Shown here piece by piece: positions 42,953 through 49,925 of a stretch of 64,000 nucleotides of DNA. The DNA lies in contig CAVVIH010000008.1 in NCBI GenBank assembly GCA_963748295.1, positions 123,873 to 187,872 on the forward strand, written 5' to 3'. Origin of the DNA: an uncultured Acidobacteriota bacterium. GTDB lineage: Bacteria > Acidobacteriota > Vicinamibacteria > Vicinamibacterales > 2-12-FULL-66-21. Numbering within the stretch: the first letter of the stretch is position 1; every line of letters starts with the position of its first letter. Both the position numbers and the translations under genes were made by a program. The notes under the pieces were generated by a model that was given only the letters and a program-made list of their open reading frames with translations, was not told where the DNA came from and did no database searches.

Positions 42953-44260
42953 CAGAAATAGTACTTCAGCCGCACGTAGCCGAAGTCATCGGACGAGAAC
43001 CGTCCGATCAGGTCCCGGCCGCTCCCGATGAACCACCCGAGCGACCCTTCGAGCGCGACGTTGTCCTTCAGCGTGACGACGCCGATACCGCGGAGGAAGC
43101 CGGACGATTCCGATGCGTTGTAGACGGCGAACCCTCGCAGCCGATATCGCTCCCGGCCGAACGTCCGATCGGTCGATGCCATCAGCGAGACATCCGTGCG
43201 GCCGTCGCTGGCGGTCGCACCGGACGCAAGAGGCTCATCGTACGACTCGGAGTGTACGAGCACGGTGGCGCCAACGGTGTAGTCGCCGGCGCGCCGATCC
43301 AGCCCGACACCGGCATCGACGGATCGCCCGCTGACGCGCCCGAACGAAGGCGACTGAAAGCTGTCCTCGGCGAAGAACGCGGCTTCGCCACGAAATCCCC
43401 ACGGAACCCGAGACCGTTTCGAAGTCGCCGCCAATCATCGTGAACCTGGGATACGTCTCGGAGATCCTGATTTCGGCGCCAGTGACCGGTACCGCTACGA
43501 ACAGGCCGAACGGCTCGAACCCGCGATACGCAGACACACTCCAGTCGACACGCCTGGTGGTCGCGGAAAACCGAACGCCTCCCTGTGCGTTTTCCGCGGT
43601 GAACGCCGGCGTCTGCCGTTCACCGCGTGAAATCACAGGACAGCCGAGCGCGAGACAGGCGACTGGAGACTGCGCGGATGCAGCTGCGAGATTGAATGGC
43701 GATGTCGGTTCGTCGAGCTGGTCGAACCGGCCGCGCCGGAAGAACGGGACGTAAACCCCTTCGATCGCCACGTCTTCCGAGAAGGCGATGCGCCCGCGCA
43801 CCAGCGCGACCGGCAGCCTCGCTTCGCTGCGGCCTTCGAAAAAGAACCTCGACACGTCGAGCGGGTTGATGACGTCAGTCGGCTGCAGCTCGTCGAGCCG
43901 TCCCCACACGACGCGCGCGCTCCCGAGCAGCAGGTCCAGTTTTCGCCATGTGAACCCGACGTGGGCGTCGTGCACCCTGGCAATCGCATCCGTGACCCGG
44001 CCGGTGCGATCGGGTTCAGGGCCGACCGGCCTGCGCGCCAGCAGTCCCTCGGCAAATCCCGACAACGTTATTCGAATGCGCGGATTCGGCTCGAGCTTCT
44101 CCTCGGCGAAGAGCCGCACGCGCAGCTCGGTGGTGTCTTCGCGGTTCGGCAAATAATCGCCGAACACCGACACATGTCCGGTGGGCCGCTGCCGTGCTTC
44201 GGCCGCGGCGGCACAGAGCAGCACCGCCAGCGTCGCGACGGCGGCGCGGACGCGCGTCAT
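42952..44260 (-). CDS. Outer-membrane beta-barrel protein, DUF1302-like (frameshift near 43410)
   Basis: MTRVRAAV signal peptide, VVWGRLDELQPTDVINP, C-terminal VRLKYYF barrel signature. Confidence 0.75.
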
Positions 44261-46599
44261 GCGGCCGCCGACATGTTCGCGCGGCGCAACGCATCCGCGC
44301 CGAACACGCGCGGCATGAGCTTGATGATCGCCGGCAGGATGAATACTTCCGCCAGGAACGCGAGCGCCATCGTCAAGGCCATGAGCCCGCCGAACCAGGC
44401 CGTCGGCTTGTACTCCGACAGCAGCAGCACGCCAAAGCCGCAACTGTTGATGATCGCGGTCGTCAGCGAGGCGCGCCCCTCGTGGGCGGTGGCCAGCGCG
44501 ATGGCCTCGTCGGTCGACTGCGCCGGCGGCTGCTTCCTTGCGGTATCGATTGATGAAGTGAATCGTATCGTCGTCGACGACGCCAAGCGCGACGCTGGCC
44601 ACCATCACGGTGGCGATGTTCATCGAGATGTCGAGGAATCCCATGACCCGAGCACCGCGACGACCGGGAGCAGGTTCGGCACGATTGTCAGCAGCCCGAA
44701 GCGGAACGAACGGAACACGACGAAGATGACGCCGAATACCGTCAGGAACGCCGTGGCGAAGCTGTTGACCTGCGAGGTGACGAGGTAGTGATCGAGGGTG
44801 CTGAACAGCCGCCCGATCCCGTCGTCAGGACCGTGATTCCCGTGCCTTCGAACGTCCGTCGCCCGATCCTGTCGGCTTCCTCGACGAGCTCCAGCACCAG
44901 ATCGGAGCTCATCGACTGCAGCTTTATCGAAATCTGCGCGCGCGAGTAATCGCTCGCGACGACGCGCTCCAGCTCGTGACGTCCTTCGCCGCCGAGCGCG
45001 AAGACGAACAGCTCCTGCGCGATCGTGTCCGCATCTGCGGGCACGACGTCCGCATCGGGGCGGCCGTCGTTCAGTTCCTTGTTGATGCGGCGTACGTAGT
45101 CGACGACCGAGGTGACCTTGCGCACGTGCGGGAAGCGCCGGAGCTCCGCCTGCAGCGCGTCCATCCGCTGCAGCGTGTCGGGACTCTTCATCGAGTCTGG
45201 CGGGCCCTCCAGCATCATCTGAAAGCTGTACACACCAGACAACTGATGATCGATCACGAGAGCGGACGCTCCGAGCGGGTGGGTGCGGCTGAAGAAGTTG
45301 ATGTGGTTGGTGTCGACGCGGAGCCGGAGGATTCCGAGCGACGCGATCACGCCTGACGCGAGCGTTGCAACGAGCACGCGGCCGGGGTGCGCGCACGAAA
45401 AGCGCGCGATCCGCTGCAGCGGCCCGAGCAGGTACTGCTCGTGCGGCGCCGGCGCCGTCTCCGGCTTCATCAGCGACAGCATCGTCGGCATCAGCACCAG
45501 CGAAATGACGAAGTCGACCATGATGCCGACAGCGGACCCGATGCCGAACGCCCGGACCGCGACGACGCTGCTCGTTGCCAGCGACAGCATGCCCAGCGCC
45601 GTCGTGGCGCTGGCGCCGAACAGCGGCACGGCGAGATGCGACACCGTCGCCTTGAACGCCTGCTCGGCATCGCCGGTGCGACGCTGCTCGTCCCAGTGCT
45701 GCATGATGTGCACGTCGTCCGCAATCGCCAGCACCAGGACGAGCGGGATCAGCATGCTCGCGAGCACGTTGTAGCTGAACCCCAGCAGCGAGAAGAGCCC
45801 GAGCGTCCAGAGCACGCTGACGGCCACGGCGAACACCGTCAGCAGAGTCTTTCGCCACGACCTGAACGTCAGCGAAGATGGCAATGACGGTGATGAGCAG
45901 GATTGGAGGCGTGAACTTGTACTGGTTTTCCAGCGTAATCCGGTTGTAGGTCTCGCTGATTTCCAGGCTGCCGTTGTAGAAGGCGCGCACGCCGGCGGGC
46001 AGTCCGGGATCGACGATGTCGTGGATTCTCTGGATGACCCCGGCCCGCACATCGTCGATGCGGTCCTCGTCGAAGCTGACGACGATGGCCGTCACCGTGG
46101 CGTCCTCGGACACGAGATCGCCCCGAATCAGATCGTCCTTGAGAGCGCGGCGCTTCACATCGGCGGGGCCGCGCATGTCGAGGTTCTCGAGCAGCGGGCG
46201 CACGTCCAGGCCGCCCGCGTCGGCTTCTCCCGCCGCTGTTTTCGACGGAGGCAGTGCTTCGACGATCGTCGCAGTCGCCAGACTGTAGACGCGCTGAACG
46301 GTCTCGACTCTTTCGATCTCTTCGGTGACCCGCCCGATGAATTGCAGCGTCTCGCGCGAAAACAGCCGGTCGGCGGATTCCGCCTTCAGCGCCACGATCA
46401 GCACGCGGGTGCCCGGGAACTCGGCCCGGAAGCGCTCGTAGTCGCGGTATACCGGGTCCTGCTTCGAGAACCAGGCCGTGATGTCGTTGTCGATTGCCGT
46501 GATGTTCGCGCGCGGGGCAAGGGCGAACGCCCCGAGGACGATGAAAACCGAAAGGATGAAACGCCAGCGATAGATGGCGCCGGCGAGCGTGCGGCTCAT
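44257..46599 (-). CDS. MMPL/RND family transporter (frameshifts near 45870, 44815, 44640, 44520)
   Basis: IADDVHI and GVVDDDTIHF TM motifs, TTALGMLSL, two-fold repeat architecture. Confidence 0.85.
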
Positions 46600-47471
46600 T
46601 TGCCGGCTCCACGCTCGAGCTCGCGCCGGGCGAAGTCGCTCTCCTTGAGGCCGACGTTGTAGTCCATGCTCTCGACGACGAGCTCCGTGCGCGTCTTCTC
46701 GAGATCGTTGGTCATGGTGGACTCCATGACCGTCCAGATGCCCTCGATGCGCTCGACCCGCCTCACCGTGTAGACCTTCTGTTTCTCGTTCCGGCGGTTG
46801 AAGATGTCGGCCTGCACGACGACGAGGCTGTCCTTGAGGATCAGCGACACGACCCGTGGAAATTCGGCGTTCGCGTCCTTACGCCGCGATTCGAGTCGCC
46901 ACGCAGGCTGCGGCGATCCTCCAGCGGGAGGCGTCCACGATGCATCCGTGCCGTGCCCTGAGCCCGTCGAAGGGCCGGCGAACGCGTAGGTGTATTCGTC
47001 GAACTCGCGGCCGCCGATGTCCTCGTATGTGAAGTCGCTGCCGACGAAGCTCTCCTGGGTTTCGGCGCCGGCGATTCGCCGAACGCGGCCGAGTGACGGC
47101 AGGTAGAGGAACCGCTCGTCGTCCGCGTCCGGGTGTTCCCAGACGAGAAACGACGTACCGCGGATGTCGTTGGGAAAGGTGAAGCGGATCAGCAGGCGAT
47201 CGCCGTCCGGCGCCGTTGGCGCGTCGCCCGGCGCACTTCGTCCGCGCAGCGTCGTCAACGTCATCGCGCGCTCGCGGCTGCGTCCGCGCCGATCGAACAG
47301 CCTCATGCGCATCGCGCCGCGCGAGTCGCGTCCGATGTCGCGGTCCTGGACCTGGCGCGCAATGGATTCCGGGGACGGCGTCTGGGCATCGACGCGCTCG
47401 GGGCAACACGTCGCGGCGGTCAGGCCGACGGCGAGGATTGCGGCCAGCGCCTCCCGAACCCGGTTGAGCAT
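46596..47471 (-). CDS. Outer-membrane lipoprotein-sorting protein (LolA-like)
   Basis: LIRFTFPNDIRGTSFL, DDERFLYLPSLGRVRRI, SFVGSDFTYED, IEGIWT. Confidence 0.88.
   Translation of the reverse strand: MLNRVREALAAILAVGLTAATCCPERVDAQTPSPESIARQVQDRDIGRDSRGAMRMRLFDRRGRSRERAMTLTTLRGRSAPGDAPTAPDGDRLLIRFTFPNDIRGTSFLVWEHPDADDERFLYLPSLGRVRRIAGAETQESFVGSDFTYEDIGGREFDEYTYAFAGPSTGSGHGTDASWTPPAGGSPQPAWRLESRRKDANAEFPRVVSLILKDSLVVVQADIFNRRNEKQKVYTVRRVERIEGIWTVMESTMTNDLEKTRTELVVESMDYNVGLKESDFARRELERGAGK
46955..46975. repeat. REP-like palindrome inside the CDS
   Basis: GCCCTGAGCCCGTCGAAGGGC, translated as PSTGSG. Confidence 0.6.
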
Positions 47472-47482
47472 GGCTGGCCCGA

Positions 47483-47512
47483 ATTATGTGAAACATTTCA
47501 CAAATGTGTCAA
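47483..47512 (-). promoter_or_regulatory. sigma70 promoter with CRP/FNR- or Rex-type palindrome in its spacer
   Basis: Minus strand TTGACA-N18-CATAAT; TGTGA-AACATT-TCACA at 47487-47502. Confidence 0.8.
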
Positions 47513-47552
47513 ACCCCTTGAAAATTCGGGCAAAACACGTCATCGTCAGGTG

Positions 47553-47780
47553 ATGGCGCCTGAGACCGTCCTCATATTCGGCAAGGACACCTGCCCTTAC
47601 ACGCAGGCCGCGCGCGACGACTACGCGAAGCGGAAGGTCCCGTTCGAGTACGTGAACGTCAAGAAGAACCCTGCCGATCTGCAGCGGATGCTCGAATTCT
47701 CGAAGGGGCGGCGCGAGGTGCCGGTGATCGTCGAAACAGGGCGTGTGACGATCGGCTTCGGGGGAACCTGAGGCGTCTGA
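47553..47780 (+). CDS. Glutaredoxin-like putative selenoprotein (Sec-x-x-stop C-terminus)
   Basis: GKDTCPYT, VPVIV, TIGFGGT-TGA(47769)-GGC-GTC-TGA. If not recoded, the ORF ends at 47771. Confidence 0.8.
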
Positions 47781-47782
47781 CG

Positions 47783-47799
47783 GCTCCGCGGCGCGGGGC
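47783..47799 (+). promoter_or_regulatory. Candidate bacterial SECIS hairpin
   Basis: GCTCCGC-GGC-GCGGGGC, starting 11 nt after the TGA, with G in the apical loop. Confidence 0.6.
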
Positions 47800-47800
47800 G

Positions 47801-47858
47801 AAACAACTCCCAACTCCCCACGAAACAACTCCCAACTCCCAAAAAGACCAACTCCCAA
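47801..47858. repeat. CAACTCC heptamer array
   Basis: aaa caactcc caactcc cca cgaaa caactcc caactcc caaaaagac caactcc caa. Confidence 0.85.
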
Positions 47859-47873
47859 GGGAACCGGGTACTA

Positions 47874-48296
47874 TCAGCTTTTTTCCAGAACAGGGACGGA
47901 GATCTTCGCCCGGATCGCGTCGGGCACGGGCACCGGCTTGTGCGCACTGTAGTCGTACATCACCTGCACCGTGCGGGCGGTCGCAACGACGGCGCCCGAT
48001 GCATCGGCGATCTCATAGTCGTACATGAAGCTGGTCCGGCCAATCGCCGCGACGCCAATCCCCACCTCGAGCACCTCGCCGGAACGCACCGGCCGCCGAT
48101 AGTCGATCTCCGCGTGGGCGAGGATCACACCGGGCGCACCGGCGGGACGATCCTCGAGCGAGAAACCCCACAGCGCGCGCCAATGCGCGAAGCGCGCCTG
48201 CTCGAGGTACGTCAGGTACACCGCGTTGTTGACGTGACCCATCGGATCGCAATCCCGGAAGCGAACTTCGAGCCGATGCGAAAAGACTCGCTCCAT
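47874..48296 (-). CDS. Acyl-CoA thioesterase (hotdog fold, 4HBT family)
   Basis: VRFRDCDPMGHVNNAVYLTYLEQAR, IDYRRP, GRTSF. Confidence 0.92.
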   Translation of the reverse strand: MERVFSHRLEVRFRDCDPMGHVNNAVYLTYLEQARFAHWRALWGFSLEDRPAGAPGVILAHAEIDYRRPVRSGEVLEVGIGVAAIGRTSFMYDYEIADASGAVVATARTVQVMYDYSAHKPVPVPDAIRAKISVPVLEKS

Positions 48297-48318
48297 GGGT
48301 TTAGTCTACAATCACCGC

Positions 48319-49925
48319 GTGGCTCCCGTCGCCGCGGCATCGGCTGAAACATTCACCGACCAGGAGCGCCAGCAGCTGGCGCCTTACTTCACGAACCTCG
48401 ACGGCCACGTCTTCGCGCTGACGAACCTTCCCGAAACCGTGAAGGGCGCGCTCTTCGCGCGCTACTCGCGATCGGCGAAGTCGCTGCGGCGTCTCTTCCT
48501 CGACGAGTTCGCGAGCGGCGTGCCACCGGCGCCGCACGCCGACACGGGCGTCGGCATCGAGCGCGCGGAGAAGCTGTACGCGCGCGTCTTCAACGATTAC
48601 GGCGACGACTCCGTCGCGCAGCTCGGCGGCGCACACATCGCGTGCGAGTACGTCTCGAACGTGCTGACGAAGGTGCTCGAGTGGGGCCGCCTGATGGCGT
48701 ATCTCGAGCAGTCGACGCGCTACGTGCCGTATACCGACAAGCTGCACGGCCGCTGGCGCTATCACGTCCCGGCCGAGATTTCAGCCGGTCCGCTGCGTGA
48801 TGCGTACGAGCGGACCATGGACGAGACGTTCGAGGTGTATGCGCGGTGGATTCCGCCGATGCAGGAATACTTCGCGCGCAGATACCCGAAGAACGAGACC
48901 GATTCGGACGCGGTGCATCGCGCGGCGATCCGGGCAAAGGCGCTCGACACGCTGCGCGGCCTCCTGCCGGCGGCTACCCAGTCCAATCTGGGCATCTATG
49001 GCACCGGACAGGCGCTCGAGGCGCTGCTGCTGCGCATGCGCGCACATCCGCTTGCCGAGGTTCGCGAATGCGCGGACCAGATGCTGGTCGAGCTGCGGAA
49101 AGTGATTCCCGCATTTCTCGTCCGCGTCGATCAGCCGGAGCGCGGCGGACGCTGGAGCAGTACCTCGCCGAGACGCGCGAGCGCACCCTGGAGACGGCGG
49201 CCCAGCTCGTGGTCGACGAGCCCGAGGAACGCGACGAGGTCGTGCTCGCCGACTTCGATCCCGACGGTGAAGCGAAGGTCGTCGCCGCGGCGCTCTACTC
49301 CGCCACCGCGCTGCCCGACGATCAGCTCCTCGCGATCGCGCGCCGGATGACGCCCGACGATCGCGCCCAGGTGCTGCGCAGCTACGTCGGCGAGCGCGCC
49401 AATCGCCGTCACCGTCCCGGCCGTGCGTTCGAGCGCACCGCGTACCGCTTCGACGTGCTGACCGACTACGGCGCGTTCCGCGATCTGCAGCGGCACCGGC
49501 TGCTGACGATCGAGTGGCAGCCGCTGTCGCCGCGCCATGGATTCACCGAGCCTGACGCCATTCACGAGGCGGGCGCACACGACGACTGGCAGCGCGTGCT
49601 CGAAGCGTCGGCAGCGCTGCACGACAGGATCGTCGCGGCCGGGCTGCCGGGCGTCGCGCCGTACACCGTCGCCATGGCGTACCGCATCAGGTTCTACATG
49701 GAGATGAACGCGCGTGAGGCGATGCACGTCATCGAGCTGCGCTCGGCGCCGCAGGGGCATCCCGCCTACCGCCGCGTCTGCCAGCGGATGCACACGCTGA
49801 TCGCCGACGCCGCCGGTCATCACGCCATCGCCGAGGCGATGAAGTTCGCCGATCACTCCGAAGTGGAGCTGGAGCGGCTCGGCTCGGAGCGCGCGCTCGA
49901 ACGGAAGCGGCTTACTCCGCCTTGA
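48319..49925 (+). CDS. thyX: Tandem-domain FAD-dependent thymidylate synthase (frameshift near 49155)
   Basis: ALFARYSRS, YGDDSVAQL, EQSTRY, RGLLPAA, RAFE, DYGAFRDLQRHR, GHPAYRR. Confidence 0.85.

Follow-up and report, generated by a model that had tools for sequence, protein, structure and literature searches.

A UXX-star family 1 selenoprotein of the Vicinamibacterales with a selenocysteine tail predicted to fold into the glutathione groove of a glutaredoxin-like protein

Introduction

On the forward strand of the DNA analysed here (hereafter the window; 64,000 nucleotides from an uncultured acidobacterium of the order Vicinamibacterales), a small reading frame starting with ATG at position 47553 encodes a glutaredoxin-like protein that contains a CPYT motif with the sole Cys of the frame and proceeds through GFGGT to an in-frame TGA, which is followed by GGC-GTC and, two codons past the first TGA, by a second one at 47778–47780. 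The locus raises the question of whether the first TGA ends the protein or encodes selenocysteine (Sec) and, in the latter case, what a Sec residue so near the chain end could do. A first-pass annotation made from the letters alone had described this same arrangement, which we confirmed in the window, and had proposed a hidden selenoprotein ending with Sec-Gly-Val, in which the C-terminal Sec pairs with the N-terminal Cys. A full-text literature search for UXX-star selenoproteins, the group to which the protein is assigned below, returned the review PMC13188914 as the sole match; no biochemistry of the family concerned (NF041114) was found in the literature searched, and no matching passage was found in the main text of the GOS paper, which is the reference given for that family.

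Family assignment and conserved ending

The gene (47553..47780, + strand) encodes 75 residues and a stop, MAPET...GFGGT-U-GV, when the first TGA is translated as Sec (U). Scored in this 75-residue form, it matched the NF041114 model (UXX-star selenoprotein family 1) with 126.3 bits against a cut-off of 72, covering profile positions 1–70 of 70, and NF041212 with 101.9 bits against a cut-off of 66; with the same reading, none of the ordinary glutaredoxin and NrdH profile models reached its cut-off (Grx3, 36 versus 90 bits; NrdH-redoxin TIGR02194, 24.8 versus 85.75 bits). The resemblance to Uxx-star proteins noted in the first-pass annotation extends over the whole model, and the gene is an additional member of a family already catalogued, with which it shares the C-terminal U-x-x-stop, the small glutaredoxin fold and a Sec-utilising host. 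The table of the review (PMC13188914) enters this family as 'Distant Grx-like protein 1' with the motif UxxT and two Sec residues, whereas the present member has CPYT in place of UxxT, that is, Cys at the N-terminal site and a single Sec. The motif (47592..47603, + strand; Cys14, CxxT) is invariant in alignment A2, with UPYT in 10 of the 30 relatives. Of these relatives, which are the best 30 of 38 matches over the cut-off, 20 have Cys at the N-terminal site and 10 have TGA (Sec), and UxxT is therefore not required by the NF041114 model. The closest named relatives belong to the Vicinamibacterales (Acidobacteriota); among organisms in culture, Anaeromyxobacter oryzae (L086) is one carrier. The ATG at 47553 is backed by 72-residue database matches of 90–99% identity over the same span; a 212-residue reading frame from GTG at 47133 was rejected, as it overlaps the divergent gene and the homologues have 68–72 residues.

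The in-frame TGA (47769..47771, + strand; Sec73) and the ensuing Gly74-Val75 with the true stop (47772..47780, + strand; GGC-GTC-TGA) make up a conserved ending. TGA, two codons and a stop occur in 30/30 relatives, the final stop being TGA in 17, TAG in 12 and TAA in 1, and in 77 of 80 GTDB loci (75 by pattern and 2 by eye), a set that was found by a pattern demanding the N-terminal Cys and that overlaps the 30 relatives. The three exceptions carry Cys (L093, GGACGV, above the NF041114 cut-off), carry Ser (L099) or have diverged (L102). Cys stands in place of Sec also in L124–L126 and, by a strict pattern, in 9 of 150 library proteins (e.g., P0131), so that the Cys homologues sought as a check of the first-pass annotation are present. 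This replacement indicates that position 73 needs a thiol or selenol; a few relatives (L099 with Ser, P0183 and P0200) have a tail with neither Cys nor Sec. In sister Uxx-star subfamilies (L124–L126, L128, L129, L131, L133 and L134), CxxT is combined with GRG-C tails and CxxC with GRG-U tails of 3–5 residues; since the tails of the sister families span 2–8 residues, some with CxxC, the rule of two residues after Sec is not universal.

If the first TGA were a plain stop, the gene would yield a monothiol glutaredoxin of 72 residues, and the hairpin described below would be a terminator or a chance structure. In agreement with such a product, all 120 close database matches listed end at GG(T/S). 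The same matches show that the truncation by standard ORF calling pointed out in the first-pass annotation is real, three residues being lost from the chain end. Sec73, called the catalytic residue in that annotation, is more likely a resolving or partner residue, since in glutaredoxins the role of nucleophile falls to position 14, where 10/30 relatives themselves have Sec. Library entries ending with GGTWGV presumably arose from translation of the TGA as Trp by gene callers. A plain stop is at variance with the stop codons themselves: over 110 loci, the first is never TAA or TAG, whereas the second is often one of these. It is likewise at variance with the Gly-Val pair, the residues of which are kept across relatives despite synonymous codon changes. 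For ordinary genes of the genome with a TGA stop, a further stop exactly three codons downstream was found in 15 of 1050.

SECIS hairpin and Sec machinery

Folding confirmed the hairpin noted in the first-pass annotation, a 7-bp stem with one G-U pair and a G-containing loop (GCUCCGC-GGC-GCGGGGC; 47783..47799, + strand), which begins 11 nt past the first TGA and sits entirely behind the true stop, in the 3' UTR. Its GGC loop starts 18 nt past the Sec codon and 9 nt past the true stop; the spacing rule for bacterial SECIS elements is 16–37 nt. In five foldings, the stability of the hairpin showed no excess over shuffled sequences (z, −0.41 to +0.94), a result that by itself would suit a plain stop, and the significance of the hairpin resides in its position and conservation, as its stability alone is not beyond chance. 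We therefore examined the homologues for a stem of at least 5 bp with a loop of 3–8 nt bearing G in its first two positions, the loop lying 16–24 nt past the codon and the energy being −6 kcal/mol or better, thresholds that were chosen after the homologue hairpins had been seen. Such a hairpin was detected at 89 of the 92 distinct loci that have TGA and at none of the three that do not, as compared with 79 of 1050 ordinary TGA stops of the genome (7.5%) and 609 of 4600 shuffles. The stem sequences differ freely among the homologues. RNAalifold gave no consensus pair on an unanchored MAFFT alignment of 30 3' ends, which is attributable to the varying offsets at which the hairpins start, and covariation is therefore not formally shown. 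No such hairpin is present in the Cys variant (L093) or the Ser variant (L099), both of which come from small MAGs in which neither selA nor selB was found. In L099, a Ser codon TCA replaces the Sec codon and the hairpin is lost, possibly representing a one-base exit from selenium use. A role of the hairpin as a terminator was rejected, because a U-tract is absent on the + strand.

A SECIS element behind the stop codon is not new for bacteria: in the gene of SaoC, described in bioRxiv 10.1101/2022.07.06.499078, UGA-UAG precedes a stem of 7 bp that carries a GGU loop. SaoC resembles the present gene in this placement of the bacterial SECIS but is an unrelated lipoprotein ending with Cys-Sec. 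The 92 natural UGA-xx-stop hairpins, which are under no coding constraint, offer a clean set for defining the needs of SelB. In the two-Sec forms (L027, L028, L030–L032 and L034–L038), CGTGA is found 18 nt past the N-terminal TGA in 10/10 cases; this motif, in the loop of a coding-region hairpin, is likely a second SECIS.

The genome contains selA, selB and selD above the cut-offs as well as a tRNA-Sec whose anticodon is UCA, so that the machinery to be checked for (selA/selB/selC/selD) is complete. The first-pass annotation had named a lack of Sec machinery together with a lack of Cys variants as evidence against its reading, and both proved to be present. The selD gene carries an in-frame TGA of its own, behind which an 8-bp stem is capped by a GCC loop. 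For the order as a whole, 61 genomes were surveyed: selA is present in 55 of them and the NF041114 family in 37. Of these 37, 36 also have selA, and the remaining genome, which is 84% complete, has selB. The family occurs in none of the five other selA-less genomes, four of which are at least 94% complete and lack selB over the cut-off as well. This co-occurrence, which bears against a plain stop in that the gene tracks the Sec machinery, is a consistency check and not a statistic, because kin are not independent. The selA (G000:C6:332985-334323) and selD (G000:C8:487909-488832) genes appear frameshifted, and split frames or run-together genes are seen also at window positions 48295–49925 (ThyX-like) and 43235–46599 (MMPL) and in L122 (rex/moaC); these are likely indels of the long-read assembly rather than pseudogenes.

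Collectively, the NF041114 score, the conserved ending, the Cys variants, the hairpin and the Sec machinery support the hidden selenoprotein, and we infer that the first TGA is almost certainly read as Sec, a plain stop being highly improbable. In public reads, no contig spans the gene; two RNA runs reach only the side of the neighbouring thioesterase gene, an outcome that bears on expression in neither direction.

Predicted structure and the glutathione site

Structure prediction with AlphaFold2, in which Cys was used for Sec and 30 close sequences served as input, gave a glutaredoxin core that consists of four strands plus two helices and lacks the last helix (pLDDT 87). Short β-bridge strands were assigned to residues 55–56, just before the cis-Pro, and to residues 73–74, the last block having a pLDDT of 86. 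When U-G-V was omitted, the 55–56 strand disappeared and the chain end became disordered (pLDDT 47). From the secondary-structure strings, from which the pairing was deduced, strands 55–56 and 73–74 are predicted to pair, with the tail folding into the glutathione groove. The pairing of the C-terminal Sec with the N-terminal Cys proposed in the first-pass annotation is thus supported at the level of modelling, by the AlphaFold2 predictions with and without the tail.

The best structural matches of the model were BC3987, NrdH, cGrx1 and Grx3, and all 50 alignments listed end at residue 70–71, ahead of the tail. NrdH-redoxin and BC3987 (1H75, 4FIW and 3ZIJ) ranked highest (Z, 9.7–10.2; rmsd, 1.3–1.9; 64–66 residues aligned); like the present protein, they are small and have 'GF' past the last strand, but they differ from it in having CxxC and a C-terminal helix. 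The class I glutaredoxins (E. coli Grx3, 3GRX; clostridial cGrx1, 7C10/7C12) share the fold (TM, 0.76–0.77) together with K-x-x-CPY and GR-x-VP. They have, however, CxxC or CxxS, GG-x-D and a last helix for the glutamate of glutathione (GSH), whereas the present protein has CxxT and neither of the latter two; its C-terminal Sec tail is predicted to occupy the GSH site.

In the sequence alignment with E. coli Grx3, Lys11 coincides with the Lys that precedes the active site, and Val56-Pro57 (47718..47723, + strand), the glutaredoxin TVP/cis-Pro motif and predicted partner strand of the Sec tail, coincides with TVP; in the alignment of relatives, Lys11 is at least 90% conserved and Arg54 is invariant. 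As described in PMC11724882, GSH is held through a hydrogen bond between its cysteine and the backbone of the VP valine and through binding of its glycine carboxyl by the Lys that precedes the active site, while its glutamate is contacted by residues that follow the GG, at helix 3. Going by the model, the protein keeps the VP and Lys elements of the GSH site, while its own tail takes the place of the glutamate-contact element.

Glutathione synthetase GshB was detected in 0/61 genomes of the order, in comparison with 3 of 14 controls, and the hosts of the present protein differ in this respect from those of the class I glutaredoxins. GshF also exceeded its cut-off in 0/61 genomes, a figure to be read with the fact that no control passed this cut-off either. 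The search for thiol synthesis comprised GshB and GshF. A thioredoxin reductase (TrxR) gene is present in the genome. NrdH-redoxin is reduced by TrxR and not by GSH.

Proposed mechanism

We propose, with a probability of roughly 0.6, that the protein is a glutathione-independent thiol-disulfide oxidoreductase, whose Sec tail would lie in the glutathione groove and form a reversible Cys14-Sec73 selenenylsulfide. The predicted position of the tail in the glutathione pocket of a glutaredoxin makes it likely that the protein carries its own built-in redox partner. Moreover, the predicted bridge between residues 73–74 and 55–56 at the site of the GSH cysteine, the missing last helix and the missing GshB together suggest that the tail is likely a tethered stand-in for glutathione, with a bond between Cys14 and Sec73.

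In the first step, SelB with Sec-tRNA almost certainly recognises the G-loop hairpin, located 18 nt downstream of the UGA, and inserts Sec, and the ribosome terminates two codons later. The chain would then take on the glutaredoxin/NrdH core seen in the model, in which the last helix is missing, its tail pairing with the backbone at residues 55–56 as the GSH cysteine does with Val of the VP motif. Cys14 may attack a substrate disulfide or an oxidised thiol; the resulting mixed disulfide could then be resolved by the tethered selenolate, which would do the work of a second glutathione, to give Cys14-S-Se-73. In the two-Sec relatives, a diselenide would form instead. Re-reduction of the S-Se bond would most plausibly be carried out by thioredoxin reductase, the gene of which is present, or by thioredoxin.

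Two other functions of a selenoprotein were weighed against this oxidoreductase. In one, Cys14 and Sec73 would bind or shuttle a soft metal or metalloid (Hg, As or Cu) without redox cycling. The closeness of the two residues predicted by the model would fit metal binding equally well, and in P0234, a sister protein, an ArsR domain is joined to a HUGP/GUXX-star-like glutaredoxin domain; for UXX-star proteins, the review (PMC13188914) suggests that Sec may coordinate a metal or encounter substrates that are unknown. We nevertheless regard this function as rather unlikely, as the catalytic signature of glutaredoxins (K-x-x-CPY and GR-x-VP) is intact and no metal-resistance genes are found among the recurring neighbours (81 clustered loci) or the mapped neighbours (110 loci).

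In the other, which we consider quite unlikely, the tail would act in trans, by dimerization or domain swapping, or would merely plug the groove, with no stable Cys14-Sec73 bond. The GFGGT linker is rich in glycine and flexible, with one-residue insertions in relatives, cGrx1, a close structural match, undergoes domain swapping, and cis and trans arrangements are indistinguishable in a monomer model. Nevertheless, the monomer model places the tail confidently, and both sites are Sec together in 10/30 relatives, as expected for a matched pair.

Returning to the oxidoreductase with a built-in partner, a more far-reaching and more tentative version, to which we give slightly less than even odds, is that the T-U-G tail replaces γ-Glu-Cys-Gly, so that the protein would be a 'seleno-glutathione' redoxin with an internalised cofactor, cycling between Cys-Sec or Sec-Sec states in glutathione-lacking soil Acidobacteriota. 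The idea of such a tethered glutathione was not found among the literature matches listed; the 2025 work of Haft and Tolstoy, who reportedly defined UXX-star family 2, lies outside that scope and may discuss mechanism. If true, the idea would account for the end of the chain just past Sec in this family, for the tolerance of Sec at both sites and for the use of a glutaredoxin fold by bacteria that lack glutathione. The contribution of the present analysis is a testable mechanism for a widespread catalogued family (37/61 genomes in the order).

Gene neighbourhood

On one side of the gene lies a LolA-like/MMPL operon that diverges from it, and on the other a thioesterase gene that converges with it, with a ThyX-like gene beyond the latter. 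Thioesterase, ThyX-like and LolA-like/MMPL neighbours recur in about 40–50% of 110 loci with changing orientation; a conserved operon naming the substrate was rejected on this ground, the neighbours being syntenic housekeeping and transport genes.

Between the selenoprotein gene and the divergent operon lies a Rex-like operator, ATGTGAA-ACAT-TTCACAA (47486..47503, unstranded), which has one mismatch to the consensus as quoted in PMC2883068 and was not met with in 100 shuffles. This box overlaps a strong sigma-70 promoter match (11/12) for the divergent operon, and its right half forms the −35 element of a weak sigma-70-like promoter match upstream of the selenoprotein gene (9/12, a consensus match only; 47497..47525, + strand). 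The genome encodes Rex and contains only 5 matches to the Rex-box pattern. Over 97 distinct homologue loci, 36 Rex-like boxes were found, 16 of them upstream and 20 downstream, and the asymmetric form of the box faces the LolA-like/MMPL/ABC transport cluster. Rex control as a conserved feature of the selenoprotein gene was rejected, because the box follows the transport operon across relatives. These observations suggest a small, NADH/NAD+-controlled Rex regulon in the Vicinamibacterales.

The ThyX-like gene (window positions 48295–49925) encodes two tandem Thy1 (PF02511) domains and adjoins the selenoprotein gene in 56–58 of 110 loci. Between the convergent genes, positions 47800–47858 of the window contain short imperfect repeats built on CAACTCCCAACTCCC; the genome has 186 copies of this 15-mer, some of them close to selD and rex, and the repeats possibly constitute a REP-like intergenic element.
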